Position numbers and translations under genes: made by a program | The notes under the pieces: model-generated | What the model was told of the DNA's origin: nothing | What the model saw: only the letters and a program-made list of their open reading frames with translations | Database searches by the model: none | Assembly: GCA_963829105.1 (NCBI GenBank) | Contig: CAWHHF010000023.1 | Coordinates: 12,844 to 76,843 of the forward strand | Origin: an uncultured Chloroflexia bacterium | Lineage (GTDB): Bacteria; Chloroflexota; Limnocylindria; Limnocylindrales; CSP1-4 | Reading direction: 5' to 3' | Length of the DNA: 64,000 nucleotides | Part shown: one piece after another, positions 40,921 to 64,000 of the stretch | Numbering within the stretch: the stretch's first letter is position 1 | How the letters are laid out: the number at the start of each line of letters is the position of its first letter

Positions 40921-41214
40921 TCAGGCGCCGTCGAACGTCCCGTCCATCCAGTCCGGGTCGTCCTCCAGCAGCGCGCGCAGCTCGAGGTACCGGTCGTTCT
41001 GCTCCGGGCTGTCGGCGTTGGCCTTGTAGGTGGCCTCGTCGTCGAACAGGGCGACCAGGAACACGGTCGGCCGCTCGTAGGGGTTCTTGTCGGGGCGGAA
41101 GAAGTAGCTGGAGCGGAAGCCCCGGACGCTGACGCGCTCCATCCGCCTGCCGTAGGCGAGGAGATCGTCGAGCCGGCCCGGCTTGGGGTGAAGTCGCGCG
41201 ATCGTGCCGTACAT
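40921..41214 (-). CDS. Small ABM-like (antibiotic biosynthesis monooxygenase fold) protein, putative
   Basis: MYGTIARLHPKPGRLDDLLAYGRRMERV...TVFLVALFDDEATYKANADSPEQNDRYLELRALL. It is taken as separate from the upstream in-frame MttB relic. Confidence 0.5.
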   Translation of the reverse strand: MYGTIARLHPKPGRLDDLLAYGRRMERVSVRGFRSSYFFRPDKNPYERPTVFLVALFDDEATYKANADSPEQNDRYLELRALLEDDPDWMDGTFDGA

Positions 41215-41366
41215 GGTGGGGACGCACCTCCTGGCGGGAACTGGGATCCGGTCCGGGCCGGATCGGAGGTGGATTGTCCGCCAATCGGGCGATCGTCGCC
41301 GGATCGTCGCCGGGCTGCCGTCATGCCGCACCCGGGCCGACGCAGGCGGGACGTATCGACCCCGAC

Positions 41367-46064: not shown

Positions 46065-46973
46065 TCAGCCAGGCCCGCCGTCACCGATCTCGATGTTCAG
46101 CACCGCCTCCGCGGCGAGCCGCAGGAGCAGGTCCCGGCCCGTATCGTGGCGCGCCCAGCCGCGCCCGTCCCAGGTCTCGCCGGACAGGTCATCGCCCGCA
46201 TAGAGGATCTGGCCAAACGACACGCGTCGGAACCGCGCGACCGCGAAGAAGGCGGCGGCCTCCATCTCGACGGTGAGGCAACCCTCGGCGACTCGCCGAG
46301 CCACCTTCTCCCTGGTCTCGCGATAGAGCGCGTCCGTCGTCCAGGTCTTGCCCGCGACGTGCGGGATGCCGTGCCGGTCGAGCGTGGCGAGCACGGCGGC
46401 GATCGCGTCGTCCGTCGGGGCGACGTCCCGGGAAGCCGGCAGGTAGTGGTAGCTCGTGCCCTCGTCGCGGATCGCCGCCGTGGGGACGATCACGTGGCCC
46501 ATCGCGAGATCCGGGACCAGCACACCGGCCCCACCGACGGCGACGAATGCCCGGCCGCCAAGCGCGATCAGCTCGTCCAGCCAGCCCGCCGCAAGGGGCG
46601 CGCCGACACCCGCCAGCGCGATCGCCAGCCGCCGGCCGTCGCAATCCACCTCGAACACGGGGTGCGATCCCATCTCCGAGGCGAGTCGTCCGATCTCCCG
46701 GCCACCCTGCTCGCCGACGAACGACGAGATCGCGTCCCGGAAGAAGCACAGCACCACGTGGGGCGGCAGGTCGAACGGCTCGATGGCGAGGGCGGGCTCG
46801 ATCACGGCGTCTCGCGCCGGATCGAAATCGAGGATCGGTGCGTCGGGCGAGATCGCTACGTCCAGCGGATCGGGCAAGAGAGGAGCTCGGTATCGGCGGA
46901 ATGGGCGGCTGTCGCTCTCGATGATGCGCTGCCGGACCGCGCGGCGCGTGGGGGTCGTACACTCGGTCGCCAT
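46065..46973 (-). CDS. Nucleoside phosphorylase-family protein (PNP_UDP_1 fold)
   Basis: AGVGAPLAAGWLDELIALGGRAFVAVGGAG...PTAAIRDEGTSYHY...TTDALYRET...VEMEAAAFFAVA. The only ATG giving a full-length N-terminus is at 46973. Confidence 0.72.
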   Translation of the reverse strand: MATECTTPTRRAVRQRIIESDSRPFRRYRAPLLPDPLDVAISPDAPILDFDPARDAVIEPALAIEPFDLPPHVVLCFFRDAISSFVGEQGGREIGRLASEMGSHPVFEVDCDGRRLAIALAGVGAPLAAGWLDELIALGGRAFVAVGGAGVLVPDLAMGHVIVPTAAIRDEGTSYHYLPASRDVAPTDDAIAAVLATLDRHGIPHVAGKTWTTDALYRETREKVARRVAEGCLTVEMEAAAFFAVARFRRVSFGQILYAGDDLSGETWDGRGWARHDTGRDLLLRLAAEAVLNIEIGDGGPG

Positions 46974-48984: not shown

Positions 48985-49003
48985 ACCCGGCGGGAGTCCC
49001 TGC

Positions 49004-50056
49004 ATGACGGCGCCGAAGACCCCGTACACCGGTTCCGACCCCGTCATCTTCCTTGGCCAGCCGGCGCGCTCCCCCGTGCTCCCCGGCCCGCCGCCACGGC
49101 CCGAGCCGGAGCGGGTGAGGCTGACGATCGACGGCCGGCCGGTCACGGCCGGCGCCGGCACCACGATCCTGCAGGCCTGCCGCGCGCAGGGCATCGACAT
49201 CCCCACGCTGTGTCACGGCGAGACCGTGGAGCCCGAGGGCGTCTGCCGGCTGTGCGTGGTGGACACCGGCGGCCGGGCGCTGACCCCGGCCTGCTCGGTG
49301 AGGGTCTCGCAGGGCCTGGACGTGCGGACCGACAACGAGCGCGTCCGCCACTCGCGGAAGCTCGTCCTGGAGCTGCTCGGCTCGTCGGTGAACGTGGACC
49401 TGGCGGGTCCCGCGCTGCCGGACGGGACCATCGACGGGTACATGGCCAGGTATGGGGCGGACCCGGCACGGTTCGGGCCGCCGGCACCGCCGGCCGCGGC
49501 GGGTGAGCGCGATGGTCGCGACGCCGGGCACCACCACGCCCCGGACGGGTCCTCGGCCGAGACCGTCGCCCAGCCCGTGAAGGTGGACAACAGCCTGTTC
49601 GTGCGCGACTACGCTCGCTGCATCCTCTGCTACAAGTGCGTCGAGGCCTGCGGCGTGGACGCCCAGAACTCGTTCGCGATCTCCGTCGCCGGGCGCGGGT
49701 TCGACGCCCGGATCTCCACCGAGTACGACATCCCGCTGGCCGAGGGCGCCTGTGTCTTCTGCGGCAACTGCATCAACGTCTGCCCTACCGGCGCGCTGAT
49801 GTTCCGCTCCGAGTACGAGCTGCGCCTGGCGGGCACCTGGGACGAGGCCTCCCAGACCGTCACGCACACGATCTGCCCGTACTGCGGCGTGGGCTGCACG
49901 CTCCAGCTGCACGTCCAGGACAACCGCATCGTGAAGGTGCTCTCGCCGGCCGATTCCGAGCTGACCAGGGGCAACCTGTGCGTGAAGGGCCGCTTCGGGT
50001 TCGACTTCGTCCAGGATCGCCCGACGGGCGGGCGCGAGGAAGGGCCGCAGCCCTGA
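49004..50056 (+). CDS. NuoG-like Fe-S protein corresponding to the N-terminal Fe-S domains of a formate dehydrogenase alpha subunit (truncated after the MopB 4Fe-4S motif)
   Basis: The 2Fe-2S site is LCHGETVEPEGVCRLCVVD...PAC. The ferredoxin-type clusters are CILCYKCVEAC and CVFCGNCINVCP. The molybdopterin-oxidoreductase 4Fe-4S domain is CPYCGVGCTL...GNLCVKGRFGFDFV. The stop comes 12 codons later. Confidence 0.85.
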   Translation: MTAPKTPYTGSDPVIFLGQPARSPVLPGPPPRPEPERVRLTIDGRPVTAGAGTTILQACRAQGIDIPTLCHGETVEPEGVCRLCVVDTGGRALTPACSVRVSQGLDVRTDNERVRHSRKLVLELLGSSVNVDLAGPALPDGTIDGYMARYGADPARFGPPAPPAAAGERDGRDAGHHHAPDGSSAETVAQPVKVDNSLFVRDYARCILCYKCVEACGVDAQNSFAISVAGRGFDARISTEYDIPLAEGACVFCGNCINVCPTGALMFRSEYELRLAGTWDEASQTVTHTICPYCGVGCTLQLHVQDNRIVKVLSPADSELTRGNLCVKGRFGFDFVQDRPTGGREEGPQP

Positions 50057-50097: not shown

Positions 50098-51093
50098 GTG
50101 ATCGTCCTGCTCGAGGTTGCCGTCAACGTCGTGCTGCGGCCGCAGGAGGGTCCGCCGGCGCTGGCGGCCGTGTTCGAGGGCTACCTGCTGGCGCTGGGCG
50201 CCGTGGCGGGGCTGCTGGCCATCCTGGCCTCGCTGGGATCCGGGACCGGGGGGGCCTGGATCCGCCTGGTCGGGGCGGTCATGATCGTGGTCGCGATCGT
50301 GCGCCTGGGGGGCGAATGGTGGTCTCCCAGCCCGACCGTGGCGACCGGCGCGAACCCGGCCCCGATCGAGCTCCAGGTCATGACCTGGAACCTGGCGATC
50401 GGGTCCCGGTCGACAGCCGAAACCGTGACCGGGATCATCGGGTCCGGGGCGGACCTCGTAGCGGTCCAGGAACTGGCGCCCGACGTGGCAGCGGCCATCG
50501 AGGCCGACCCAGCGCTGCGGGCGCGGTACCCGTACCGGATCCTCGAGCCATCGGAAGGGACGGCCGGGCTGGGGCTGCTGAGCCGGCTGCCGCTGGTGGT
50601 GGGCAGCTACGCGGCGGAGCCCCCCGTCCTGCAGGCCGGCCTGCTGCTCCCCGACGGCCGGACCGTCCAGGTGCTCGACGCGCACCCGATCGCCCCGGAG
50701 ATCACCCACCTCGGTGGGGTGCCGTTCGGGCTGGACACGCGGCAGCGTGACGCCGAGCTCCAGGCGATCCGGGACACCGTCGCGGCGTTGCCCGATCCGG
50801 GCGCCGCCCTGGTCCTGGGGGACCTCAACCTCACGCCGTTCGAGCCCGGCTACGGCCTGCTGACCGGCGGGTCGCCCGGGCCCCCGCTCACCGACGCCCA
50901 CGAGGCGGCCGGCACCGGCACGGGCTTCACCTGGCGGCCGACCGCGCTCGATCGCCTCCAGATCGGGCTGCTGCGCATCGATCACGTGCTGTCCGGCGCC
51001 TGGCTGAAACCGATCGCGGTGCGCGAGGACTGTGCCCTGCCCGGCGACCACTGCCGGCTGCTGGCCACGCTGGAGGCGGCCGGCGGCGGCTGA
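50098..51093 (+). CDS. Membrane-anchored endonuclease/exonuclease/phosphatase (EEP) family protein
   Basis: N-terminal hydrophobic segments are followed by LQVMTWNLA...DLVAVQEL...LGDLNLTPF...RIDHVL, the EEP motifs. The start is uncertain: GTG at 50098, or CTG at 50053 overlapping the preceding stop. Confidence 0.7.
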   Translation: MIVLLEVAVNVVLRPQEGPPALAAVFEGYLLALGAVAGLLAILASLGSGTGGAWIRLVGAVMIVVAIVRLGGEWWSPSPTVATGANPAPIELQVMTWNLAIGSRSTAETVTGIIGSGADLVAVQELAPDVAAAIEADPALRARYPYRILEPSEGTAGLGLLSRLPLVVGSYAAEPPVLQAGLLLPDGRTVQVLDAHPIAPEITHLGGVPFGLDTRQRDAELQAIRDTVAALPDPGAALVLGDLNLTPFEPGYGLLTGGSPGPPLTDAHEAAGTGTGFTWRPTALDRLQIGLLRIDHVLSGAWLKPIAVREDCALPGDHCRLLATLEAAGGG

Positions 51094-51178
51094 GCGGGGG
51101 CGGTCCCGCCCGGTACCCGGTACCCTTGGGGTCCACACGACCCAGGCGAGCAGGGGCCACCCGGCCCTGTCCCGGCCG

Positions 51179-51196
51179 ATGTATCGAACGACACAG
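51179..51196. promoter_or_regulatory. Imperfect palindrome ATGTATCGAACGACACAG 43 nt upstream of the histidine kinase start; related to the palindrome at 61234
   Basis: It matches CTGTATCGAGCGATACAG (61234..61251) at 15 of 18 positions. It is relatively AT-rich in a GC-rich spacer. Confidence 0.4.
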
Positions 51197-51238
51197 TCGG
51201 ACGCACGAGCCATCCCGACGCATGAGCGCACTGGACGC

Positions 51239-53050
51239 ATGAGCGAACCCCGCGGCAGCCGCGACCTCAACCGCCTCAAGTGGGCGACGATGGTGCTCCC
51301 CATCGTCTTTGTCTGGCTGTTCGAGCTGGGCCGGTTCCTCGTCCTCGACCCGAGGGTCACGGGTGACAACGGCCACGTCGCGTCCGCGATGATCATGGGC
51401 GGGGCGATCGTGGTCTTCGCCACCATCGTCTCCCTGTACCTGGACCGCGCCCAGAAACAGCTGGTCGCCCAGAACAAGGACCTCACCGTCACCCATGCCG
51501 TCAGCTCTGCCGTGCGCGGCGGCCTCTCGCTGCCGGACCTCCTGGAGCAGTCGCTGGACCGGCTGATGACCCAGACCGGCGCCCTGACCGGCATCGTCAG
51601 CGTCAGGGGCGCCGACGGCCAGGCCCTGGTCATCCGGCGCCCGGTCACCCTCCCGGCCGGCCTCACCTGGCTGACGCCCATCCTCAACGCCCAGCCGGAC
51701 CCGGCCGTGGATGGCCCGCGGTACCTCGTCCAGTCCGGCGTGGACACCGGCGTCCTCGACCTGCCGCTGGTCCACGGCTCGGAGCGCATCGGCTACCTCC
51801 GCCTGGCGTTCCGCCCGCCCGTCCAGCCCGACATCTCGGACGCGGCCCTCGCGGACATCGCGGGCGAGATCGCCGGCGCCGTCCAGCTGGGGATCACGGT
51901 CTCCGACCTCCACCGGCGCGAGCTGGAGCGCGAGGCCCTGTACGCGGTCGCCCTCCAGCTCACGGGCCGCAACGACCTGCGCGACGTCCTCGACACCATC
52001 ACCGCGCACGCCCGCGAGCTGCTGGGTGCCGAGCGGGCGGTGGTCTGCCTGAGCGACGCCCGCGACATGACCTCGCGCACCGCGATCAGCCGCGAGCGCC
52101 TGGCGATGGCCGACGACGGCGGGGTGTGCCTCGTCGCCCACGAGCAGAGCTCGGCCCAGCATGCGCGCAACCCTCTCTGCCCGCTCCTTGTCAGGGACGG
52201 CACGGACGCCTGGGCCGCCCGCCCGCTCCGCGGCCCCGACGGGATCCTCGGCGAGCTCTGCGTCGTCCGCTCGGGCGCCCCGTTCACCGCCCAGGAGCGG
52301 AACCTCCTCGGCGCCCTCGCGGACATGGCGTCGATCGCGGTGCGCACGGCCCGCCTCCACGAGGCCGAGGAGCAGTGGACCATCCACGCGGAGCGCGACC
52401 GGATCGCCCGCGAGCTCCACGACAGCCTCGCCCAGGTCCTGGGCGTCATCCACCTGCAGCTCCGGTCGCTCGAGGCCCGCGCCAAGGACGAGGCGAGCCT
52501 GGGCATCGCCGACGAGCTCTCGGCCCTCGCGGAGACGGCCGACGAGGCGTACAGCGACGTCCGGGAGGCGATCCTCGGGCTGCGCGAGACGGTCCGCGAG
52601 GACGACGGCCTCGAGGGCTCGCTGCGCGAGTACCTGCGCAAGTACAGCCGCCAGACCGGGATCGTGGCCACGCTCTCGTGCGAGGGCGACACCCGCCGGG
52701 CGCTCAGCCCGAGGTCGGAGGTCCAGCTCCTGCGGGTCGTCCAGGAGGCGCTCACCAATGCCCGCAAGCACTCGCAGGCGCACCGGGTGGCGGTGCGCAT
52801 CGACTGCCTCGGGCAGGGGACGACGCTCACGGTCGAGGACGATGGCGTCGGCTTCGACCCGTCCTCGGTCGCGAGCTCCATGGAGGGCGGCTTCGGGCTG
52901 AAGTCCATGCGCGAGCGGGTCGAGCAGATCGGTGGCAGTATCGATGTGCATACCGCCCCGAACGAGGGGACGACGATCGTCGTCCGGCTCGACGCTGAGG
53001 ACACGCGTGGGACACCTTCCCCCCAGACTCCGGGTGCTGCTCGTCGATGA
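51239..53050 (+). CDS. Sensor histidine kinase (2 TM + GAF + HisKA_3 + HATPase_c; NarX/LiaS class)
   Basis: Two N-terminal hydrophobic helices and GAF-like regions (DLRDVLDTITAHARELLGAERAVVCL). The phospho-His box is ERDRIARELHDSLAQ, and the C-terminal ATPase has VEDDGVGFD...GFGLKSMRERV. Confidence 0.85.
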   Translation: MSEPRGSRDLNRLKWATMVLPIVFVWLFELGRFLVLDPRVTGDNGHVASAMIMGGAIVVFATIVSLYLDRAQKQLVAQNKDLTVTHAVSSAVRGGLSLPDLLEQSLDRLMTQTGALTGIVSVRGADGQALVIRRPVTLPAGLTWLTPILNAQPDPAVDGPRYLVQSGVDTGVLDLPLVHGSERIGYLRLAFRPPVQPDISDAALADIAGEIAGAVQLGITVSDLHRRELEREALYAVALQLTGRNDLRDVLDTITAHARELLGAERAVVCLSDARDMTSRTAISRERLAMADDGGVCLVAHEQSSAQHARNPLCPLLVRDGTDAWAARPLRGPDGILGELCVVRSGAPFTAQERNLLGALADMASIAVRTARLHEAEEQWTIHAERDRIARELHDSLAQVLGVIHLQLRSLEARAKDEASLGIADELSALAETADEAYSDVREAILGLRETVREDDGLEGSLREYLRKYSRQTGIVATLSCEGDTRRALSPRSEVQLLRVVQEALTNARKHSQAHRVAVRIDCLGQGTTLTVEDDGVGFDPSSVASSMEGGFGLKSMRERVEQIGGSIDVHTAPNEGTTIVVRLDAEDTRGTPSPQTPGAARR

Positions 53051-53699
53051 CCAGCCCCTGTTCCGCAGGGCGCTCGCGACGCTGATCAGCGCCCAGTTCG
53101 ACATGACGGTCGTGGGCGAGGGCGAGAACGGCCGTGACGCCCTGGAGAAGGTCCGGGCGCTGCGTCCCGATCTCGTCGTCATGGACGTGAACATGCCCGT
53201 CGCCTCGGGCGTGGACGGCGTGATCGCGATCCGCGCGGCGGGCATCACGACCCCGATCGTCATGCTGACCGTGTCCGAGGACGACGACGACCTGTTCGAG
53301 TCGATCAAGGCGGGCGCCAACGGCTACCTGCTCAAGAACGTGCGCCCGGAGCAGCTGTTCGAGGACCTGCGCGGCATGATGCGCGGCGAGGCGCCGATCG
53401 CCCCGGCCGTCGCCGGCAGGCTCCTCGAGGCGCTGCGCACCGGCGGGATCCCCACCCGCGGACAGCCCGCCGCCTCTCCCCCGGACGCCGTCCTGACCCG
53501 TCGCGAGTCGGAGATCCTCCAGCTGGTCGCCGCCGGCATGTCCAACAAGGAGATCGCCAACGAGCTGACGATCACCGAGGGGACCGTCAAGAACCACGTC
53601 CACAACGCGCTGGAGAAGCTGCACCTCACGAACCGGGTGCAGGCCGCCGCGTACGCCGTCCGCCAGGGCTACGCGAACCAGGAGCCGAACCGGGACTGA
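53007..53699 (+). CDS. NarL/LuxR-family response regulator
   Basis: RVLLVDDQPLFR...PDLVVMDVNMP...MLTVSEDD forms the receiver domain. LTRRESEILQLVAAGMSNKEIANELTITEGTVKNHVHNALEKL forms the LuxR helix-turn-helix. The GTG start overlaps the kinase 3' end. Confidence 0.9.
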   Translation: MGHLPPRLRVLLVDDQPLFRRALATLISAQFDMTVVGEGENGRDALEKVRALRPDLVVMDVNMPVASGVDGVIAIRAAGITTPIVMLTVSEDDDDLFESIKAGANGYLLKNVRPEQLFEDLRGMMRGEAPIAPAVAGRLLEALRTGGIPTRGQPAASPPDAVLTRRESEILQLVAAGMSNKEIANELTITEGTVKNHVHNALEKLHLTNRVQAAAYAVRQGYANQEPNRD

Positions 53700-54358: not shown

Positions 54359-54877
54359 ATGGGTGACGACATCCGCCGTGCTGCCACCGCCCCGGCGTTC
54401 GATCCGCGAGCGACCCCCGTTCACCGCCGCCGCGTCCTGCTGTTGATCGGGGTGACCGCGCTCGCCGGCGGCAGCCTCGCCGCCCTGCTGGAGGGATGCG
54501 CCGGACCGCCTGTCCCGGTGGAGCTCGACGTCGACCCGGACACCCTGGTGCCGGGTACGCCTGTCGAGGTGCCGTTCACGGTCCAGCTCGGCGGCAACGC
54601 GGTCGCCGGGTCGGCCTGGCTGGTGAAGCAGGCGTCGGGGGAGATCATCGCGTTCGACCCGCGCTGCACCCACGCCCTGTGCTCCTACCGCTGGGAACCG
54701 GGTCCGGCAGACTTCTCGTGCAACTGCCACGACGGCAAGTTCAGGCTGGACGGGACCGTCATCTCGGGCAAGCCGCCCAAGCCGCTGAACCGCTTCCCGG
54801 TGCACGTGACGGGCACCGTGGTGGAGGTCGACGTGCCGGGGGACTTCGCCACCCCGAAGGCGTCCCTGCCGGCGTAG
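54359..54877 (+). CDS. Exported Rieske [2Fe-2S] protein (twin-arginine signal, possible lipobox)
   Basis: HRRRVLLLIGVTALAGGSLAALLEGC is the Tat motif plus an L-x-G-C lipobox-like site. The Rieske ligands are CTHALC...CNCHDGKF. Confidence 0.85.
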   Translation: MGDDIRRAATAPAFDPRATPVHRRRVLLLIGVTALAGGSLAALLEGCAGPPVPVELDVDPDTLVPGTPVEVPFTVQLGGNAVAGSAWLVKQASGEIIAFDPRCTHALCSYRWEPGPADFSCNCHDGKFRLDGTVISGKPPKPLNRFPVHVTGTVVEVDVPGDFATPKASLPA

Positions 54878-55146: not shown

Positions 55147-56136
55147 GTGCCATTCATGTCCCGGGTCACGTCCCTGACCTCGATGCCCGAAGCACAGCTG
55201 AACCGCTGGATCCGGCGGATCGGCCTGCTGCTGATCATCGGCATCGTCGCCTTCGTCGCGTTCTACGCCGTCGACCGCTTCCGCGCCCCGGCCGCCCCGC
55301 TCATCGACCGGGAGATGGCCGCGATGGAGGAGGCCGTGCGGGCCGATCCGACGGATATCGCCTCCCGGGGCAGGCTGGCGGACCTGTATCTCGCCGCCAA
55401 CCGCTACGACGATGCCATCGCCCAGTACACCGAGATCATCAAGACAGGCAAGCAGGACGAGGCAGGCTACACGAGCCGGGGCCGGGCCTATGAGTTGAAG
55501 GGCGACCTGACTGCCGCGGCCGCCGACTACAACAAGGTCATCGAGATCGGTGCCCCGGGCGAGATGGCCAACGTGGACCCGATGATGGAGATCGCCTACT
55601 ACGGTCTCGGCGCGATCGCGCTCAAGCAGGACCGGCCCGACGAGGCCGTCACGCAGCTCCTCAAGGCCCTCGCGATCAAGCGCACCGACGCCGACGCCAT
55701 GAACCTGCTCGGGGCGGCCTACGTGAAGGCGGGAACGCCGGACAAGGCCGTGGAGCCGTTGCGGAAGGCGATCGAGTTCGTGCCGATCGGCTGGGCCGAT
55801 CCCTACCAGACGCTGGCCGACGCGTACAAGGCGTCCGGTGACGCCGCTCTGGCCGAGTGGGCCGGCGCGATGGCCGCGGCCAACACCGGCGACGTCGCCG
55901 GCGCGGTCACCCGCCTCACGGCCATCGTGGACGGGCCGGCCGGGCTCGATGCGCGCGTCGGCCTCGGCCTGCTGGCGGAGATGCGCGCCGACGCGACCAC
56001 GGCCGAGCAGTGGTACCGCAAGGCCCTCGAGCTCGATCCCGAGAGCACGTCCGCCAAGCTCGGCCTGGGCCGCGTGACCGGCACGACCGGAGGACACCCC
56101 TCGATCGCGCCGTCGCCCAGCTCCGGGAGCAACTGA
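55147..56136 (+). CDS. Membrane-anchored TPR-repeat protein
   Basis: AAGGAG lies 5 nt upstream of the GTG at 55147 (an ATG at 55156 is also possible). One TM segment (IGLLLIIGIVAFVAFYAV) is followed by several TPR-like units (LADLYLAANRYDDAIAQYTEIIK, RGRAYELKGDLTAAAADYNKVIE, ...WYRKALELDP). Confidence 0.75.
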   Translation: MPFMSRVTSLTSMPEAQLNRWIRRIGLLLIIGIVAFVAFYAVDRFRAPAAPLIDREMAAMEEAVRADPTDIASRGRLADLYLAANRYDDAIAQYTEIIKTGKQDEAGYTSRGRAYELKGDLTAAAADYNKVIEIGAPGEMANVDPMMEIAYYGLGAIALKQDRPDEAVTQLLKALAIKRTDADAMNLLGAAYVKAGTPDKAVEPLRKAIEFVPIGWADPYQTLADAYKASGDAALAEWAGAMAAANTGDVAGAVTRLTAIVDGPAGLDARVGLGLLAEMRADATTAEQWYRKALELDPESTSAKLGLGRVTGTTGGHPSIAPSPSSGSN

Positions 56137-57212
56137 TGACCGCGTCCCCGTCCGCCGCCCAGTCGGTCGCTGGCGCCCCCGCACCCGACGTGTCGGCAAC
56201 GCCGCCCGACGGTCCGGGCGCCGAGGTCGAGGAGGCGCCCCCCGAGAAGCGGCGTCGAAAGCTACTCCTCCTGCTGCTGCTCCTGGCCGGCTTCGTGCTG
56301 CTGCTCGCGCTCGCGATCTGGTACCTGCTGTTCCGCCAGCCGATCCCGGTCCCGACCATCCCTGGCGAGACGGTCATGCCCGGCTACGTCACCTCGATCT
56401 ACGGTGCCTCCCGCCCGATGGGCGTCGCCGTGAACGCCGCCGGCGACCGCGTCTACGTGGGCGCGACCGCGGGCGACCAGACCGCGCTGGTCTTCGACGC
56501 CGGGGGCAACCAGGTGGCCAAGCTGCTGCCCCCGGTTTCGACCGGCGACAGCCACGTGCCGGTGTACCTGGCGGTGAACCCGCAGACGGGCGACATCCTC
56601 GTCTCAGACCGTCCCACGGCTTCCATCTACGTCTACGACGCCCAGGGCACTTTCCTTCGGACCCTGCAGCCGCCGGCCGAGATCAAGGGCTGGCAGCCGC
56701 TCGGCATGGCGTTCGACGCGGCCGGCAACCTGTACGTCACCGACGTCGGCCAGGTCCCGAACGTCGTCCGCGAGCTCGACCCGTCCGGCAAGCAGGTCCG
56801 CGTCCTCGGGGCGACCGCCGGGCTCACCTTCCCGAACGGTGTCGCCCTCGACAACGCCGGGTACGCCTACGTGACCGACTCCAACAACGGGCGGCTGCTC
56901 GTCTTCGCGCCGGATGGGACCGTCGTCGCCACGGTCAGCCGTGGGATCGGCAAGGGCAACCTCGGCCTGCCCCGCGGCGTGGCGATCGACCAGCAGGGTC
57001 GCGTGTACGTCGTGGACTCGAGCGCCGACTCGGTGTTCGTCTACGGCCAGTACAAGCAGGGCGCCACGGGACTCGACTTCCTCGGCACCTTCGGCACCGA
57101 GGGCGTCGCCAACGGAACATTCGCCTATCCCAACGACATCGCGGTCGACGCGCGTGGGCGGCTGTACGTCGCCGACTCGGCCAACGACCGGGTGGAGTTG
57201 TGGAGCTACTGA
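56136..57212 (+). CDS. Membrane-anchored NHL-repeat beta-propeller protein
   Basis: The ATG overlaps the TPR gene stop (ATGA). A poly-Leu TM segment (RRRKLLLLLLLLAGFVLLLALAIWYLLF) is followed by six NHL-like blades (PMGVAVNAAGDRVYV, PLGMAFDAAGNLYVTD, PNGVALDNAGYAYVTDSNNGRLLVF, PRGVAIDQQGRVYVVDS, PNDIAVDARGRLYVADSANDRVELW). Confidence 0.85.
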   Translation: MTASPSAAQSVAGAPAPDVSATPPDGPGAEVEEAPPEKRRRKLLLLLLLLAGFVLLLALAIWYLLFRQPIPVPTIPGETVMPGYVTSIYGASRPMGVAVNAAGDRVYVGATAGDQTALVFDAGGNQVAKLLPPVSTGDSHVPVYLAVNPQTGDILVSDRPTASIYVYDAQGTFLRTLQPPAEIKGWQPLGMAFDAAGNLYVTDVGQVPNVVRELDPSGKQVRVLGATAGLTFPNGVALDNAGYAYVTDSNNGRLLVFAPDGTVVATVSRGIGKGNLGLPRGVAIDQQGRVYVVDSSADSVFVYGQYKQGATGLDFLGTFGTEGVANGTFAYPNDIAVDARGRLYVADSANDRVELWSY

Positions 57213-57318
57213 GCTGGCTTCAGCAAGGGAGGTGAGGAAGGGAAGCGCTTGCGCCGCCGCCAGGACCTGGCGGTCCATGTCAAGTCCACGTAGCTAAGAG
57301 AAAGGAGGTGAGGACAGT

Positions 57319-58539
57319 TTGAAACGACTGATGCTGCTCATAGCAGCCGGTAGTCTCTGGCTGTTCCTTGCCGCGGTTCCCGTCTTCGCAGACGGCGGAC
57401 CGCATGTGGCTGCGAACAACAGCGGCGTCAACGGCATCACTGCCGATGGATGCGCCGGCTGTCACCGAGCCCACTCGGCGCAGGGCGATTTCCTGCTCAT
57501 CGCGAGCTCCGGAACCACGCTCTGCCTGACCTGCCACGGGGCCACCGGTCTCGGCGCGACCACCGACGTCGAGTCCGGCGTCCAGTACACGCTGGGCACC
57601 ACCGACGTCCGCGGCACCACCGTCCTCGGCTATCTCCGGGGCGGCGGCTTCGTCAACGCCCGGATCGGGTCCGGCCAGGCCGTCCGAGTCGCGTACCTGA
57701 GCGGTACCGAGGTTCGCTTCAACGGCAAGGTCCCGGTCCGGACCGCGGGCTCGCAGCCCGTCACCTCGGCCCACCTGCCGAACGCGGCCGGCGTGGTCGG
57801 AGCGGCGGACGGCGTCGCCTGGGGCAACGGCCCCAACAGCGCAACGCCGTTTGCCGGCCCCGCTGTCGAGGTCGAGTGCGGCACCTGCCACAACCCGCAC
57901 GGCAACGGCCAGTACCGGATCCTCAATCCGATCCCTGACCCCGCCGCCACGGGCACGGACGTGTTCACCCCGGTCGCATCTCCCGGAGCCGTCGTCACCG
58001 ACGCGGCCCTCCCGGGCGCCGGCGACAACCGCAACTACACCATCATCCAGACGAACGGCGGCACCGGGACGCTCACGGCGAACCAGGTCACCGCGCTCGC
58101 CCTGCCGGCAACGGCCGGCGACTACTTCCGCCGCAAGGTTCCGTGGAACGGGACGAGCGGCACGGCCAACGACGCGCCGAACGGCCTGTCCGCGACCTTC
58201 TTCACCCAGATCTCGACGTGGTGCCTGACATGCCATTCCCGCTACCTGAGCGCCGGGTATGACGTCAAGGAAGCCGACGCGATCTACACGTACCGGCACA
58301 CGTCCAACGCGTCGTCCCGGAACTGCATCACGTGCCACGTGGCACACGGTTCCAACGCGCAGATGACGGGTCCCTACTCCGCCAACCTCAAGAACCCGGG
58401 CGGCTCCACCGCCACGGTCGGCGACAGCCGGCTGCTCAAGGTGGACAACCGCGGGACGTGCCAGATGTGCCACGACCCGACGGGGACGATCCCCGCCGGC
58501 CAGCAGTCCGGCCCGACGCCCAACCCGGTCCTTCCCTAG
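57319..58539 (+). CDS. Secreted six-heme c-type cytochrome
   Basis: TTG start 6 nt after AAAGGAGGTGAGG. The signal peptide is MKRLMLLIAAGSLWLFLAAVPVFA. There are six CXXCH motifs: CAGCH (45), CLTCH (69), CGTCH (187), CLTCH (302), CITCH (336), CQMCH (381). Three of them are CXXCHxxH. Confidence 0.9.
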   Translation: MKRLMLLIAAGSLWLFLAAVPVFADGGPHVAANNSGVNGITADGCAGCHRAHSAQGDFLLIASSGTTLCLTCHGATGLGATTDVESGVQYTLGTTDVRGTTVLGYLRGGGFVNARIGSGQAVRVAYLSGTEVRFNGKVPVRTAGSQPVTSAHLPNAAGVVGAADGVAWGNGPNSATPFAGPAVEVECGTCHNPHGNGQYRILNPIPDPAATGTDVFTPVASPGAVVTDAALPGAGDNRNYTIIQTNGGTGTLTANQVTALALPATAGDYFRRKVPWNGTSGTANDAPNGLSATFFTQISTWCLTCHSRYLSAGYDVKEADAIYTYRHTSNASSRNCITCHVAHGSNAQMTGPYSANLKNPGGSTATVGDSRLLKVDNRGTCQMCHDPTGTIPAGQQSGPTPNPVLP

Positions 58540-58758
58540 CACCATCGACCGCGTGGTGGCCGGCGACGCAAGTCCCGGCCACCCGCATCCTGCATCCGGG
58601 CCGAAGCCGCGCAGAAGAGCCGCCAACGGTCGTTTGACGTCTCCTCCGCAGGGCTCCCGCCCAGCTCCACCGGTGCCCCGCTCTACCGCCGAACCGGCCT
58701 GTCGATGGCCTCCACGGGTGAAACTCCAGCACCTCGCCATGATGAAGTCGACGCCAGC

Positions 58759-61143
58759 ATGACCAGCCAGCAGCGACCCGCACGCCGACGGGCCGGCCCC
58801 CTGTTCGGGGTGCTGCTCGTCGTCGTGGGCACGGTGGGAGCCCTGACCCCGGCCGTGCCGGCGGTGCGCGCCCTGGATCCCACGCCGGCCCCCTCCGTCG
58901 ACCCCACGCCGGCCCCGACGGCCGACCCGACGCCGGCCCCTACGTCGGATCCCACGCCCCCGCCCGACCCCACGCCGGCCCCTACGTCGGATCCCACGCC
59001 CCCGCCCGACCCCACGCCGGCCCCCACGTCGGATCCCACGCCCCCGCCGGATCCGACGGCGCCCCCTACCGAGGCGCCGTCACCGACCGCGGTTCCCTCG
59101 GGTGACCCTCTTCCGTCGGTGGAGCCCAGCGCGGCCCCCTCGGGTGACCCGGCGCCGTCCGTCCAGCCCAGCGCATCGCCGTCCCAGGCCCCCATCGGCA
59201 CGCAGGTCGCGCACGCCTGGATCGACACCGTGAACCAGGACGGCACGGTGAGCGTCCCCGGCCTGGTCGACGCCCCGCTTGGCGCCGCGCAGCGGTTCAC
59301 GGTCTACCGCGTCCGGTTCCAGCTCGTCAACGACGCCGACACGGACGCCACGCTGGTCCCCGTCATCGAGTTCTCGGGCGGCTCCGCGGACTGGGCGGCC
59401 CTGCCCATGGTCGACCCGGACCACGGCAAGGCGTTCTACGGCGCGTCCGACGACGGCCGCGTGTTCGACGCGCGCCGGACGACGATCGCGGCGGCCGACC
59501 TCCGTCTCGCCCAGGCCACCGATCCGCTCGCGAAGGCCGTGCCCGGCGAGGCCAGCGCGGGCTCGGTGCTCGCGACCCTGGACCTCCCCGCCCACAGCTT
59601 CACCGAGGTCGAGTTTGCCGTCCGGGCCACCGTGGACGCGAAGTGGGGGGCGGAGTACTCGTTCCGCCTCGTGGACGGCTCCACCGAGCTTCCCGGGGTG
59701 CGGGCAGCGCTGGTCATGGGCGCCAAGCCGGCCCTGGACCTGTCGCCCGGGCAGCGCAAGGGCGCGCCGGTGGATGACCCCGTGCCGCTCTACAAGCTGG
59801 ATCCCTCGGTCGCCTCCACCGATCTGCCGCTGGCGACCTCGACCGGCAGCGGTCAGACGGCGACCTACGCGCTGGCGCGGCCCGTCGCGGCCCCTGCCGC
59901 CCAGGATTCGCCGCACGTCATCTCCGGGCTGGCCTCGGACGCGTGCGCCTCCTGCCACGTCGCACACGACGCGCAGGGCCTGTCGCTGCTTCGCCAGCCC
60001 GATCCCCAGTCGTCGACCTGCTTCACGTGCCACGACGGGACGGGCGCCTCCTCCGACGTCCAGAGCGACTGGTCGAGCTCGTCGATCCCCGCCAACGACC
60101 CGACGACGTCGGCCTGGTACTCCCACCCCGCCACGTCGTCCTCGGACCACACGTCGGCGCTGGCGAACGAGTTCGGGGGCACGCTCAACCGCCACTCCGC
60201 CTGCGCCGACTGCCACCAGCCGCACCTCGCCGACGGGATCAGGCCTGTCAACAGCGTCGGCGGCTGGTCGACCTCGGGCGCCATCGCGGGTGCGTCCGGC
60301 GTCTCCGTGGCCAACGGCGCGGCGGGCGTGGCCCCGACGTACACCCTGCAGACGACATCGACCTTTGAATACGAGCTCTGCTTCAAGTGCCACTCCGGCT
60401 TCACGCAGCTACCCGCGCAGGATCCTGCCCACCCGAGCCGGTGGGCGCTGGACAAGGGCATCGAGCTGAACCCGGCCAACGTCTCCTACCACCCCGTGGA
60501 GGCCGCGGGGAAGAACCAGACGAACGCCATGGCGCTGAGCCTCGCCGGGACCTCCCCCTACAAGCTCTGGGTCTTCGGGACCAACGACACGATCCGCTGC
60601 GCCAACTGCCACGCCGCCGGCACCGCCGCCACCCAGGTCCCCAAGCCGGCCGCGGACGCGACCCTCGCCGACCACTCCTCGTCGAACCGCGGCATCCTGA
60701 TCGCCCAGTACAAGGATCGGACGCTCAAGCCCCGCGGGGCCTACTCCGCCCAGGAGTTCGCGCTGTGCTACGTCTGCCACGCGGAGGCTCCGATGGTCGA
60801 CGATAGCGGTGACGTGCGCACCGACACCAACTTCAGCTGGCACGGCTATCACCTCGCCGACATCAGCGGCCACGGGCTCGGCGGCACGGACATCGACGTC
60901 CCCGGCGCAGGTCCCGGCAACGCCACCTGCGCCGAGTGCCACTTCCGGATCCACGGATCCGCGCTGGCCGTGAACGGCCAGGTGCCCGCCACGGGACTGG
61001 TGAACTTCGCGCCCAACGTCCAGACCATGCGCGGGGTCCTGAAGTTCGTCCCGGCGACGCCGACCTCGATGGGCACGTGCACCCTGACCTGTCACGGCAA
61101 GGCCCACGACGCCTACGGCTACGACTACCCGACGACTCCCTGA
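58759..61143 (+). CDS. Large secreted multiheme c-type cytochrome (7 CXXCH + 1 CX3CH) with a Pro/Thr-rich repeat linker and a central non-heme domain
   Basis: The signal/anchor is RRRAGPLFGVLLVVVGTVGALTPAVPAVRA, followed by (DPTPAPTSDPTPPP)x3. A ~200 aa heme-free domain comes next. The heme motifs are CASCH, CFTCH, CADCH, CFKCH, CANCH, CYVCH, CAECH and CTLTCH. Confidence 0.85.
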   Translation: MTSQQRPARRRAGPLFGVLLVVVGTVGALTPAVPAVRALDPTPAPSVDPTPAPTADPTPAPTSDPTPPPDPTPAPTSDPTPPPDPTPAPTSDPTPPPDPTAPPTEAPSPTAVPSGDPLPSVEPSAAPSGDPAPSVQPSASPSQAPIGTQVAHAWIDTVNQDGTVSVPGLVDAPLGAAQRFTVYRVRFQLVNDADTDATLVPVIEFSGGSADWAALPMVDPDHGKAFYGASDDGRVFDARRTTIAAADLRLAQATDPLAKAVPGEASAGSVLATLDLPAHSFTEVEFAVRATVDAKWGAEYSFRLVDGSTELPGVRAALVMGAKPALDLSPGQRKGAPVDDPVPLYKLDPSVASTDLPLATSTGSGQTATYALARPVAAPAAQDSPHVISGLASDACASCHVAHDAQGLSLLRQPDPQSSTCFTCHDGTGASSDVQSDWSSSSIPANDPTTSAWYSHPATSSSDHTSALANEFGGTLNRHSACADCHQPHLADGIRPVNSVGGWSTSGAIAGASGVSVANGAAGVAPTYTLQTTSTFEYELCFKCHSGFTQLPAQDPAHPSRWALDKGIELNPANVSYHPVEAAGKNQTNAMALSLAGTSPYKLWVFGTNDTIRCANCHAAGTAATQVPKPAADATLADHSSSNRGILIAQYKDRTLKPRGAYSAQEFALCYVCHAEAPMVDDSGDVRTDTNFSWHGYHLADISGHGLGGTDIDVPGAGPGNATCAECHFRIHGSALAVNGQVPATGLVNFAPNVQTMRGVLKFVPATPTSMGTCTLTCHGKAHDAYGYDYPTTP
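58924..59049 (+). repeat. 3 x 42 bp in-frame tandem repeat encoding DPTPAPTSDPTPPP
   Basis: gacc(c/-)cacgccggccc(c/t)tacgtcggatcccacgcccccgcc(c/g), three near-identical copies. Confidence 0.85.
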
Positions 61144-61453: not shown

Positions 61454-62845
61454 GTGACCCGCGGTCTCCCCGCCACGGGTCACGAGGCCCAGGAGTCCGC
61501 GCTGCTGGCCCAGCTCGGTCTCCCGGCCAGCGCCTCCCCCGAGGATGTCGACAACCTCCACCAGGCCGCGAGCCAGTACCTCGCGTCCGCGCCTCCGGAG
61601 CTCCGCGGATGGGCCCATGCCCAGGCGTCGGCGCTGGACGAGGCGTACCTCCAATTGACCGACCCGGTCGGCCTCCAGGGCTCGGCCCTCAGGAGTCCGG
61701 CAAGGCCGCCCGCGGTCGTACCCGGCGGACCGGCGACACCTCCGGTCCGCCGGGGCTCCGTTCCCGCGGAAGCCCCGGTCCTCGTGGCCGCCGCGACCGG
61801 CGCGCCCATGGCGGACGCTGCCGTCGCCGATGCTTCGGCCGACGACGTGTTCGACGAGGACGTGATCGAGCCCGACGTCATCGAGCTTGACCCCGCGACA
61901 CAGCCCGCAGTCGGAGAGCCCGATCTCGACGACCTGGCCGTCCTCTACGCCTCGGTCACCCCGAGCGCCCACCCGGACACGCTCCCGGCCGCCAAGCCGA
62001 AGGCCAACTCCCCGGCGCCCGCTCCCGCCCGCCGTCCTGCCCGTCCCGCGGCCGCGGCAGCCGCCGCCCCGCACGCCGCCGCCCCGCAGGCCGCCAACCC
62101 CTGGAAGCGGCTGGTCCTCAGCGCGGTCGCTGTGCTCGCGGTCGTCGCCGTCGTGTTCGGCGCCATGCAGGTGGCCGGCGCGGTCGGCGGATCGCCCGGG
62201 ACGAGCGCCGACACGGCGGCGCAGGCTTCCGCCCCGGCCGTCGATCTCGCCAAGATCAGCACACTCATGACGGCGCTCGCGGCCAACCCCAACGACACCG
62301 CGACGCTGCTCGCCCTGGCCAACGAGTACTACGCGGGCGAGCAGTACACCGACGCCGGCAACTGGCTGGACAAGCTCCTCGCCCTCGAGCCCAACAACGT
62401 CGACGGTCTCCTGGCCCGCGGCGCCGTCAGCTTCAACCTCAACGACCTCCCGGCTGCCGAGACCACCTGGATGAAGGTCGTGGCCATCGACCCGAACAAC
62501 GTCGAGGTCCACTACGACCTGGGCTTCCTCTACCTCAACCAGTCGACCCCGAACTGGGCCGGCGTCCAGAGCGAGTGGAACAAGGTCATCGCGCTCGATC
62601 CCACCTCGCAGCTCGCCCAGACCGTCAAGTCCCACCTCGACTCGCTGGTCGCGAACTCGATGATCCCGGCCTCCCCGGCCGGGGCCGGCGCGGCGCCGGG
62701 TGGCTCTCCGGCTGCTCCGGCCGGCGCCAGCGCGGCACCGGGCAGCTCCCCGGCGGCGTCTCCGGCGGCGTCGCCGGCCACCAGTGCGACCCCGGCGGCC
62801 ACCCCGGCCCCCAGCCCCTCCCCGGCGGCGAGCGCCACGCCGTGA
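61454..62845 (+). CDS. Bitopic TPR-repeat protein with a Pro/Ala/Ser-rich tail, translationally coupled to ccdA
   Basis: AGGAGG lies 5 nt before the GTG. The layout is: cytoplasmic N-domain, acidic stretch, one TM segment (LVLSAVAVLAVVAVVFGAMQV), TPR units (LLALANEYYAGEQYTDAGNWLDKLLALEPNN, ...TWMKVVAIDPNN, ...EWNKVIALDP), then a PAS-rich tail. Confidence 0.75.
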   Translation: MTRGLPATGHEAQESALLAQLGLPASASPEDVDNLHQAASQYLASAPPELRGWAHAQASALDEAYLQLTDPVGLQGSALRSPARPPAVVPGGPATPPVRRGSVPAEAPVLVAAATGAPMADAAVADASADDVFDEDVIEPDVIELDPATQPAVGEPDLDDLAVLYASVTPSAHPDTLPAAKPKANSPAPAPARRPARPAAAAAAAPHAAAPQAANPWKRLVLSAVAVLAVVAVVFGAMQVAGAVGGSPGTSADTAAQASAPAVDLAKISTLMTALAANPNDTATLLALANEYYAGEQYTDAGNWLDKLLALEPNNVDGLLARGAVSFNLNDLPAAETTWMKVVAIDPNNVEVHYDLGFLYLNQSTPNWAGVQSEWNKVIALDPTSQLAQTVKSHLDSLVANSMIPASPAGAGAAPGGSPAAPAGASAAPGSSPAASPAASPATSATPAATPAPSPSPAASATP

Positions 62846-63723
62846 ACGAGCTCGGCAGTGCGATCGGCATCGGCATCGCCTTCGTCGGCGGCGTCGTGTC
62901 GTTCGCGTCCCCCTGCTGCCTGCCGCTCGTGCCGGCATACCTGGCCTACATGATGGGCGCGACCGGTGAGGGCACCGCCGGTCGCCGCCCGGCCCTCATG
63001 CACGGGCTGTCGTTCGTGCTCGGCTTCTCGCTCGTGTTCGTCGCCTTCTACGCCGCCATCGGCGCCCTGGGCGCCTTCATCGACCGCCACGTGCTCAACA
63101 TGATCGGCGGCGCGCTCCTCGTCTTCCTCGGCCTCCAGGTCGCGGGCATCATCAACGTCCGGGCCCTGTGGCGCGACACCCGCGCACTGCCCTCGATGGG
63201 CGGCGGGCTCGTGATGGCCGGCGGCACCGGGAGCGGCGGCGACGGCGGTCCCATCGGCGGCGGTCCGGCCGGCGGCGGCACCGGGAGCTCGGGCACCGGC
63301 GGCGGTCCGGCCGCCACAGCCGCCGCCACCGGCATCAGCACCGGCAGCATGGGCTTCGGTGCGATCGCCAGCCCCGGCGAGCGACCGGGCTACCCGCGGT
63401 CCTTCCTGTTCGGCCTGCTGTTCGCGGCGGGCTGGAGCCCCTGCATCGGCCCGATCCTGGGCGGGATCCTCGGCCTGGCCACCGCCACGTCCAGCGTCCT
63501 CCAGGGGACGGTCCTGCTGGTCGCCTACGCGGCCGGGCTCGCCATCCCGTTCCTCGCCGTGGCCCTGGGCGCGTCCTGGGTCGCCAGGCGGCTGACCGTG
63601 GTCGGCCGCCACCACCACGCCGTGTCCATGATCACGGGCCTCCTGCTCGTGACGGTCGGCGTGCTGATGCTCACCAACATGCTCGGCCGGCTGGCGACCC
63701 TCGGGTCGCCCTTCGGTCTCTGA
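62842..63723 (+). CDS. ccdA: Cytochrome c biogenesis thiol-reductant transporter CcdA (DsbD-core family)
   Basis: The GTG overlaps the preceding stop (GTGA). It has the two conserved SPC motifs (FASPCCLPLVPAYL and GWSPCIGPILGG) and a ~60 aa Gly-rich insert between the halves. Confidence 0.88.
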   Translation: MNELGSAIGIGIAFVGGVVSFASPCCLPLVPAYLAYMMGATGEGTAGRRPALMHGLSFVLGFSLVFVAFYAAIGALGAFIDRHVLNMIGGALLVFLGLQVAGIINVRALWRDTRALPSMGGGLVMAGGTGSGGDGGPIGGGPAGGGTGSSGTGGGPAATAAATGISTGSMGFGAIASPGERPGYPRSFLFGLLFAAGWSPCIGPILGGILGLATATSSVLQGTVLLVAYAAGLAIPFLAVALGASWVARRLTVVGRHHHAVSMITGLLLVTVGVLMLTNMLGRLATLGSPFGL

Positions 63724-63737
63724 GGAGGTAGTCGGAC

Positions 63738-64000
63738 ATGACCGAAGAGGTCCACACCCGGCCGCTTCCGCCGACTGGCGCTCCGGCCGCCGCGGCGGCC
63801 GGCCCCACGCTCATGGATCGCATCGACCGGTTGCTGGAAGGCCTGTGGCACTTCCTCACCTCGATGCGCGTGGCCATGATCCTGATGCTCCTGATCGCCG
63901 CGCTGGGCATCCTCGGCTCGCTCATCATCCAGGCACCTTCCGGGGTCCTGGGCGACGCCGAGGCCAAGGCCAGCTGGCTGGACGAGATCCGGCCGAAGTA
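63738..64000 (+). CDS. resB: Cytochrome c biogenesis protein ResB/CcsB (System II), N-terminal part; continues past the right edge
   Basis: GAGGAGG lies 9 nt upstream. LWHFLTSMRVAMILMLLIAALGILGSLIIQAP is the typical ResB first TM segment. It follows ccdA. Confidence 0.85.
   Translation, partial: MTEEVHTRPLPPTGAPAAAAAGPTLMDRIDRLLEGLWHFLTSMRVAMILMLLIAALGILGSLIIQAPSGVLGDAEAKASWLDEIRPK

Follow-up and report, generated by a model that had tools for sequence, protein, structure and literature searches.

Cytochrome nanowires are known structurally from Geobacter and its close relatives and from two archaea, and both the spread of such wires and the passage of electrons across thick walls of the Gram-positive type are open questions. 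A 64,000-nucleotide stretch of DNA from an uncultured Chloroflexia bacterium (contig CAWHHF010000023.1, positions 12,844 to 76,843; hereafter the window) bears on these questions. It encodes, at 57319–58539 on the forward strand, a predicted secreted cytochrome with six CXXCH heme-binding motifs that recalls Geobacter OmcS, and it comes from Chloroflexota, which like Actinomycetota are usually regarded as a single-membraned phylum. Is this protein a relative of OmcS, and could it build a wire of its own? Our reading, to which we give a probability of roughly 60%, is that it is a hexaheme cytochrome with bis-histidine (bis-His) ligation, a distant member of the OmcS superfamily, and an extracytoplasmic conduit within a conserved gene module, which may polymerise in the manner of OmcS.

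The hexaheme protein and its family

The gene and its flanking signals are positioned as follows:

57319–58539, + strand: gene of a hexaheme c-type cytochrome, predicted to be Sec-exported and bis-His-ligated and, by sequence, motifs, profiles and synteny, a distant OmcS-family homologue

57302–57311, + strand: Shine-Dalgarno sequence AAGGAGGTGA before the TTG of the hexaheme gene, read from the sequence

58551–58586, + strand: conserved GC-rich stem-loop, 12 nt past the hexaheme stop codon (dG −34.6 kcal/mol, z −2.9)

The open reading frame (ORF) starts with a TTG placed 10 nt past the GGAGG core of a strong Shine-Dalgarno sequence and encodes 406 residues; its GC content at third codon positions (0.89) is the same as that of the neighbouring genes, in a window of 73% GC. 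A typical Sec signal peptide, MKRLMLLIAAGSLWLFLAAVPVFA, precedes DGGPH (cleavage after ...AAVPVFA) and leaves a mature protein of 382 residues, which together with six hemes amounts to 42.4 kDa, or 7.07 kDa per heme versus 7.77 in OmcS. The CXXCH motifs lie at residues 45, 69, 187, 302, 336, and 381 (spacings of 24, 118, 115, 34, and 45), and three of the six are CXXCHxxH (CAGCHRAH, CGTCHNPH, CITCHVAH). A preliminary description of this DNA had reported six motifs, the same three extended ones, identical spacings, and about 380 mature residues, all of which agree with our reading of the gene. The mature protein contains exactly 12 histidines and no others. Hemes 1–2 are covered by Paired_CXXCH_1 (PF09699 / TIGR01905; 71.5 bits vs. 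a cut-off of 20.6 in Pfam, 57.7 vs. 25.2 in NCBIfam), a generic two-heme module of many multiheme cytochromes that is uninformative on six-heme architecture or function.

Two other identities were considered and rejected: an Alternative Complex III cytochrome, as Act genes are absent, and a catalytic octaheme-type enzyme, as all 12 histidines would be taken up as ligands, leaving no evident open coordination site. On the opposite strand, an ORF of 486 residues (57280–58740, −) spans the whole hexaheme gene; we rejected it as a gene and regard it as a shadow ORF typical of high-GC DNA.

The hexaheme family is large, unnamed, and found in Chloroflexota, with close relatives of the Candidatus Limnocylindrales / RIF-CHLX type, and in Actinomycetota. 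A search of 5.8 billion proteins, clustered at 90% identity, returned more than 1,600 homologues, the 120 best of which are 59–100% identical. Few have been named; the names in use, “cytochrome c3 family protein,” “predicted CXXCH cytochrome family protein,” and “hypothetical protein,” belong to entries from metagenome-assembled genomes (MAGs) of Candidatus Limnocylindrales or the Chloroflexi RBG_16 type. A profile search of 1.84 billion representatives at 50% identity found 1,638 at E ≤ 1e-3 and 360 at E ≤ 1e-30. Among the 150 best representatives, full-length members keep exactly six CXXCH at lengths of 311–874 residues, as well as AD[GN]GPH at the predicted signal-peptide cleavage site, and those with fewer than six motifs resemble fragments or truncated gene calls. 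All six motifs are retained in more than 1,600 homologues, and the hexaheme pattern is not a chance feature. Apart from the generic doubled-CXXCH domain, Pfam and NCBIfam cover neither this family nor OmcS with a model, and we found no published description of the family or its module in a literature search that did not include Shen et al. (2025), who claim a wide distribution of OmcS assembly genes.

A locus scan with one genome per species gave 317 stretches that encode the protein, and the best 77 loci were retained. Their hosts are Chloroflexota (Limnocylindria, Anaerolineae, Dehalococcoidia), Actinomycetota (Solirubrobacterales, Thermoleophilia, Micrococcales), and a few others, and include at least one cultured carrier, the isolate Intrasporangium sp. 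DVR (L052). In the numbering used below, L001 and L002 are Geobacter loci and L003–L080 are 78 non-Geobacter loci.

Relationship to OmcS

By profile comparison, the hexaheme protein is a distant homologue of the OmcS family. Our OmcS query equals PDB 6ef8_A over all 407 residues, and the OmcS motifs given in the preliminary description are correct. An OmcS-family alignment of 44 sequences was compared by hhalign with a target profile of 67 diverse representatives (score 180, probability 99.6%, E 9e-24) and with a narrow one of 49 sequences at least 59% identical (probability 98.8%, E 7e-17). Both alignments are full length with all six CXXCH in register, and alternatives off register reached a probability of at most 32%. 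Heme motifs alone can create similarity, and we therefore ran controls with two multiheme families from the same loci: against OmcS the 7-heme family scored 45 and the decaheme family 40, the target family scored 45 against the decaheme family, and the two control families scored 35 against each other. Profile alignment, a check of the kind that the preliminary description had named, places the six hemes in register at a score far above the multiheme background.

Searches with hidden Markov models (HMMs) agree with this. The OmcS HMM scored up to 40.9 bits on the target family (median 15.2), compared with at most 1.8 and −1.2 bits on the two control families. In the reverse direction, the target HMM gave 19.9–51.7 bits on the OmcS family (median 37), with decaheme controls reaching up to 19.8; scaled to the 1.84-billion library, 51.7 bits would correspond by our own arithmetic to E ~6e-9. 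A single HMMER domain of 48 bits takes in the distal histidine before heme 3 and then hemes 3, 4, and 5. Pairwise BLASTP aligned the protein collinearly with OmcS between heme 3 and heme 4 (143 columns at 27% identity, pairwise E 3e-5), and tblastn with Geobacter OmcS, OmcT, and the GSU2501-like protein matched hexaheme genes in 8–9 related loci, with E down to 2e-7 and spans of 170–378 residues. Motifs outside the heme-binding sites are common to both families as well: GGxF (GGGF vs. GGDFGW), CH[ND]PHG..YR, and S.WC..CH.

The histidines can be mapped one to one between the two proteins, in order and in local context. The OmcS family, too, has exactly 12 conserved histidines in its 44-sequence alignment. 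H29 of the target (GGPH, just past the signal-peptide cleavage site) corresponds to OmcS H2 in mature numbering (FHSGG), H49/H52 (CAGCHRAH) to H13/H16 (CEGCHTMH), H73 to H51, H152 to H110, H191/H194 (CHNPHG..YR) to H144/H147 (CHDPHGKYR), H306 (S.WC..CH) to H243 (SEWCANCH), H327 (YRH) to H257 (LRH), H340/H343 (CHVAHGS) to H332/H335 (CHRAHAS), and H385 to H404. Five of the six distal histidines were aligned directly by hhalign; the sixth borders the main indel. From this map we infer a ligand assignment heme by heme. The inter-subunit ligand of OmcS is reported to be His16 (Wang et al. 2019), and its counterpart in the target would then be His52.

Conservation within the family fits the same map. 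In an alignment of 90 sequences reaching down to 36% identity, the six CXXCH together with H152, H194, and H343 are invariant, and conservation is 90% or more at H29, H52, and H327. All 12 histidines are invariant or nearly so, and as six proximal and six distal residues they fit six bis-His hemes with none to spare. As the preliminary description had pointed out, the motif spacings are unlike those of OmcS. The target has about 55–65 residues fewer between hemes 4 and 5 and ~27 fewer between hemes 5 and 6, and its heme 2–3 and 3–4 segments are ~15–25 residues longer. Insertions and deletions, chiefly the heme 4–5 deletion, account for these differences, and the hemes stay collinear.

Several results weigh against our reading, and the first group of them concerns the homology itself. 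With Cys and His masked, the probability of the profile match dropped to 12% and the pairwise match to E 0.0025, with the alignment still collinear; the detectable signal therefore lies mostly in heme-binding residues and could partly reflect shared constraints. Neither phmmer nor hmmsearch with the 49-sequence profile found OmcS (6EF8) in the PDB at E ≤ 10, and the sole weak sequence match there was MtrA (6r2q, E 0.05), on the doubled CXXCH motif.

A predicted structure was compared as well. From a 90-sequence alignment that included the 50%-identity representatives, AlphaFold gave a mean predicted local distance difference test score (pLDDT) of 86.8 and a predicted template modelling score of 0.85, with a confident core, a beta-rich region in the longer heme 2–3/3–4 segments, and an N-terminal segment (19–63, heme 1 and His52) at pLDDT 37–55. 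A shallow alignment (the 49 sequences of the narrow profile) gave pLDDT 54, and Foldseek returned noise for it. When the model with pLDDT 86.8, which is heme-free and mostly loops, was searched by Foldseek against 350,542 PDB chains in a comparison that had no positive control, no chain matched at E ≤ 0.001, and neither OmcS nor any cytochrome was among the 50 best of 127 matches at E ≤ 10. The Foldseek check named in the preliminary description retrieved no OmcS-like fold for the monomer, a result that we weigh as a gap in the case and not as a negative.

These misses in the PDB, the loss of most profile signal on masking, and the occurrence of Paired_CXXCH_1 in many cytochromes speak for a convergent resemblance, in which an unrelated cytochrome was put together from the common doubled-CXXCH module and the order of its motifs is coincidental. 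We hold this highly improbable, and it was already disfavoured by the distance between the controls (hhalign scores of 35–45, at most 1.8 bits vs. OmcS) and the target (180, up to 40.9–51.7 bits). It also sits poorly with the non-heme motifs that align (GGxF, YR after heme 3, S.W before heme 4), with BLAST-level matches over up to 378 residues, and with a homologous NHL gene upstream in both systems. Of the OmcS likeness proposed in the preliminary description, distant homology is supported by the hhalign score of 180, HMMER, and tblastn; PDB sequence searches and Foldseek did not recover OmcS.

The second group of opposing points concerns polymerisation. Twelve histidines suffice for six bis-His hemes in one chain, and the heme 4–5 and 5–6 intervals are much shorter than in OmcS, so that the subunit interface may differ. 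Both points, together with the Foldseek result, would suit an OmcS relative that forms no filaments and works as a monomeric shuttle, wall-associated or soluble, between membrane cytochromes and external acceptors or other partners. Geobacter offers a precedent, as wire formation is known for OmcS but for none of its paralogues OmcT, OmcJ, and GSU2501 (PMC12977616). We nevertheless find a monomeric shuttle rather unlikely. Across a family whose identities fall to 33–40%, at least 90% of members keep the histidine at the position of OmcS His16, and the N-terminal module is the part left poorly defined in an otherwise confident monomer model. Tandem hexaheme paralogues, comparable to omcS-omcT, are common, and the signals around the gene suggest a high-copy structural subunit.

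Those signals are the Shine-Dalgarno sequence and the hairpin past the stop codon. The hairpin has an invariant 9-bp stem with one covarying inner pair (C-G to U-A) across 11 loci whose proteins are 54–83% identical. It is unique in the window and is also found just past the hexaheme stop in loci of L003–L023; Actinomycetota loci (L048, L050, L052) have a different, equally strong hairpin at the same position. It has no match in Rfam, and a simple promoter/terminator scan, like Rfam, gave nothing in the cluster. The hairpin is probably a terminator without a U-tract, an attenuator, or an mRNA stabiliser, and together with the strong Shine-Dalgarno sequence it suggests that hexaheme mRNA exceeds that of the downstream genes, as would be expected for a major structural subunit.

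The distal ligand of heme 5 in OmcS is a histidine of the adjacent monomer (PMC7096707). By analogy, it is plausible that the hexaheme protein polymerises head to tail as OmcS does, in which case His52 would complete heme 5 of the next subunit.

The gene module and its counterparts

The neighbouring genes are listed here with their closest comparison, L003, a relative whose locus is 81% identical:

51032–53050, + strand: sensor histidine kinase of the GAF/HisKA_3 type, 77% identical to the GAF/HisKA_3/HATPase_c gene of L003; the true start may be downstream of 51032

53007–53699, + strand: LuxR/NarL-type response regulator, start approximate, 87% identical to the Response_reg+GerE gene of L003

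53709–54347, + strand: receiver-like protein with weak NarP/NarL receiver matches in NCBIfam and no Pfam match, conserved mainly in Chloroflexota loci

54359–54877, + strand: small exported Rieske [2Fe-2S] protein with an RRR-containing N-terminus, accessory (Pfam Rieske 3.9e-9; weak b6f/bc1 Rieske matches)

55159–56136, + strand: TPR protein 1 with an N-terminal membrane anchor, seen as a hydrophobic stretch in the translation (many Pfam TPR matches; weak CcmH/CycH-TPR and NrfG matches), syntenic in ~60 loci

56136–57212, + strand: NHL-repeat beta-propeller with an N-terminal membrane anchor (Pfam NHL 2.6e-27), in nearly every locus the immediate upstream neighbour of the hexaheme gene

58705–61143, + strand: 812-residue multiheme cytochrome with an N-terminal anchor or signal, a Pro/Thr-rich linker, a non-heme domain, and 7 CXXCH plus 1 CX3CH in the C-terminal part (motif count; Pfam Paired_CXXCH_1, MtrC/MtrF II-IV)

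61454–62845, + strand: TPR protein 2 with an internal membrane helix and an Ala/Pro-rich tail (Pfam TPR, weak CcmH/CycH-TPR; synteny)

62860–63723, + strand: CcdA/DsbD-type thiol-reductant transporter of System II cytochrome c maturation, start uncertain (Pfam DsbD_TM; 69% identical to L003 CcdA)

63738–64000, + strand: N-terminus of ResB/CcsB, System II heme handling, continuing past the window end (70% identical to the Pfam ResB gene of L003)

The TPR and NHL genes that the preliminary description had placed beside the cytochrome (~55159–56136, 56136–57212, and 61454–62845) are thus all present. The order TPR1-NHL-hexaheme-(7+1)-heme-TPR2-CcdA, usually with kinase and regulator, recurs in essentially every locus with enough flank, and tblastn with the window neighbours found module genes 33–89% identical in ~60 syntenic loci of two phyla. 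Kinase and regulator adjoin the module in Chloroflexota and Actinomycetota loci alike; the Rieske gene is, by tblastn synteny, confined to Chloroflexota loci and absent from those of Actinomycetota. TPR protein 1 may act as a chaperone of apocytochromes or of assembly. The L003 orthologue of TPR protein 2 (L003:14042–15526) ends in a cupredoxin-like domain, which was not detected in the window protein, whose end is an Ala/Pro/Ser-rich tail. Many loci have tandem hexaheme paralogues (L013, L014, L021, L024, L025, L027–L029, L031, L041, and others). In a Thermoleophilia MAG, an ORF of 1083 residues with 35 CXXCH (L080:7788–11039) replaces the 7-heme protein after two hexahemes.

Exact-sequence look-ups of the window protein gave no record, and the course of the cluster beyond the window end was deduced from loci 78–81% identical. 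In L003 it continues with ResB, ResC, thioredoxin, and a decaheme protein of 568 residues whose N-terminus resembles NrfH/NapC/NirT and so suggests a quinol dehydrogenase; related loci have a 9–10-heme gene ~7–9 kb downstream of the hexaheme gene.

The 812-residue cytochrome is in part a paralogue of the hexaheme protein. The two families match by hhalign with a score of 134 and a probability of 98.9%, and an N-terminal module is common to both (PH...CxxCHxxH...LL...CxxCH...G.GA..DV...S.H...CxxCHxPH), so that the first three-heme module of the 812-residue protein is paralogous to that of the hexaheme. Its N-terminal third (58705–59250, +) contains, after a hydrophobic anchor, the Pro/Thr-rich repeat PTPAPTSDPTPPPD in three copies plus variants, and this repeat looks like a wall-spanning linker. 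In OmcS, the part that matches the shared module contributes heme 1 and the inter-subunit histidine. With this module, a tethered cytochrome could therefore bind at the end of a hexaheme stack. In the terminal OmcS monomer, heme 5 is left incompletely ligated and might attach to an anchor (PMC7096707), and by analogy we infer such an anchoring role for the 812-residue cytochrome.

How far does the resemblance to Geobacter extend beyond the cytochrome? In L001, the omcS locus runs from a protein of 315 residues through omcS, omcT, a spermine-synthase-like protein of 1017 residues, and a GSU2501-like hexaheme to a YNCE/lactonase-type propeller of 492 residues, followed by a protein of 718 residues and an LpoB-like protein. 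The 315-residue protein directly upstream of omcS (L001:8809–9756) has weak NHL matches, and the window NHL protein aligns with it by BLASTP (27% identity over 281 residues, E 1e-17). Used as a query, the L001 NHL protein matches the gene upstream of the hexaheme in 61 loci, the window included. Judged from these alignments, the NHL-hexaheme gene pair is a conserved core shared with Geobacter omcS. The preliminary description had named both NHL and TPR genes as flanking omcS: the NHL part holds, but neither TPR protein 1 nor TPR protein 2 has a tblastn match in L001 or L002, where the sole TPR-bearing gene encodes a divergently transcribed PMT_2 protein.

Three further points, from the loci and their hosts, belong with those that count against our reading. 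The L001 genes for the 492-residue propeller, the 718-residue protein, and the LpoB-like and spermine-synthase-like proteins have no tblastn match in the window or the 78 loci, in a comparison that covered the first part of the downstream block. In Geobacter, the downstream block GSU2500–2493 has been linked to maturation and secretion of the OmcS nanowire (PMC12977616); its absence here is as expected if there is no outer membrane to cross. Chloroflexi are regarded as monoderm (PMC7399161), and the monoderm state of this host is assumed from its phylum, which is the second point. The third is that many hosts are aerobic soil or freshwater lineages.

Set side by side, the OmcS system and ours share a Sec-exported protein of ~400 residues with six CXXCH and 12 conserved histidines in the same order, CXXCHxxH at hemes 1, 3, and 5, a histidine near the mature N-terminus, heme 6 near the C-terminus, a similar mass per heme (7.1 vs. 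7.8 kDa), an NHL gene directly upstream, and tandem paralogues (omcS-omcT). They differ in sequence, with pairwise identities of ~24–29% over partial alignments to OmcS (PDB 6EF8/6NEF), OmcT, OmcJ, and GSU2501, and in the locus, where the window has TPR proteins, a tethered 7+1-heme paralogue, and System II genes in place of the Geobacter downstream genes.

Among Gram-positive systems, CwcA (TherJR_1122 / Tfer_0075) of Thermincola (Firmicutes) is likewise described as a hexaheme of the cell wall. CwcA has been modelled on OmcS (18% identity), and a wire of such subunits across peptidoglycan was proposed, in which heme 5 takes a ligand from the adjacent subunit (PMC7911101). We propose this role for the hexaheme protein of the window as well. 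The Thermincola pathway in the literature consists of ImdcA, PdcA, and OcwA, and not of a TPR-NHL-hexaheme-7+1-heme-TPR-System II module. An OmcS homologue from actinobacterial Coriobacteriales with ~28% identity and all six CxxCH has been noted in a Rifle bioanode metagenome (PMC7399161); it is a single sequence mentioned in passing, and the family with its size, its gene cluster, and its Chloroflexota members are not described there. Wall-located multiheme cytochromes have also been noted in a Solirubrobacterales MAG (PMC6344600).

On our reading, the module would work outward. The two-component system would switch it on, and the TPR proteins and System II (CcdA, ResB, ResC, thioredoxin) would mature its cytochromes, with the NHL propeller assisting assembly like its Geobacter counterpart next to omcS. 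The NrfH/NapC-like decaheme, ~8 kb downstream in close relatives, would draw electrons from the quinol pool. The membrane-tethered 7+1-heme paralogue with its Pro/Thr-rich linker would pass them outward, and the abundant hexaheme would carry them through and beyond the cell wall. If the hexaheme does form a stack, the tethered paralogue might plug its cell-proximal end as an anchor by way of the shared “PH...CxxCHxxH” module.

Electron uptake is conceivable in view of the Rieske and cupredoxin parts and of how the hosts live, and the module may instead lead inward, bringing electrons from Fe(II), Mn(II), reduced humics, or a partner cell into an aerobic respiratory chain. The hosts (Limnocylindria, Solirubrobacterales, Intrasporangiaceae-type) come largely from soil and freshwater, the Chloroflexota clusters include an exported Rieske protein and the L003 TPR2 orthologue a cupredoxin domain, and the MAG of one homologue (L029) is labelled “MnB_4” and “Mn-Chloroflexi.” Inward flow seems unlikely to us all the same: neither the Rieske nor the cupredoxin part belongs to the core, and Actinomycetota loci lack both; NrfH/NapC-type cytochromes are usually quinol dehydrogenases, as known for this family, and bis-His hemes are generally of low potential (PMC7911101). 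The direction of flow is not readable from sequence.

Taken to its furthest extent, our reading leads to a more doubtful proposal, which we put forward tentatively: that Chloroflexota and Actinomycetota, common aerobic lineages of soil and freshwater among them, may own a nanowire system in which an OmcS-related hexaheme polymer is nucleated and anchored by the 7+1-heme paralogue, assembled with TPR, NHL, and System II proteins, and fed by the NrfH-like decaheme. If this were true, long-range extracellular electron transfer through the cell wall would be widespread in Terrabacteria, and the question of how an OmcS-type wire is both capped and anchored at its cell-proximal end would have an answer, with the 7+1-heme paralogue as candidate membrane anchor. 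The idea of a wall-spanning cytochrome wire becomes directly testable outside Thermincola, with Intrasporangium sp. DVR as a cultured host, and electron exchange with the cell exterior may be of importance to abundant lineages of soil and freshwater that are rarely deemed electroactive.

Other genes of the window

Just upstream of the cytochrome module lie a NuoF-like gene (FMN/NADH-binding; 46456–48984, +) and a gene for a 2Fe-2S/4Fe-4S/Molybdop_Fe4S4 protein (48863–50056, +). The pair also precedes the module in L003 and looks like an NAD-linked complex of the formate-dehydrogenase type. A formate-dehydrogenase-like molybdopterin protein is encoded at ~42960–44831 (+) with an in-frame TGA near 43200, in the context ...SCNRT*HAPS.... 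This TGA is very probably a selenocysteine codon, which would explain why ORF lists split the gene.

Selenocysteine machinery is clustered in the window: a tRNA-Sec (anticodon tca) at 38935–39031 (−), SelB at 32516–34486 (−), and a SelD-like protein of the AIR-synthase family at 38915–40228 (+), the called start of which overlaps the tRNA-Sec gene on the other strand. Two genes of the MttB superfamily (trimethylamine methyltransferase-like) were also found, at 35108–37501 (+) and 40921–41943 (−); one of these ORFs is unusually long (797 residues), with the MttB domain in its C-terminal portion.

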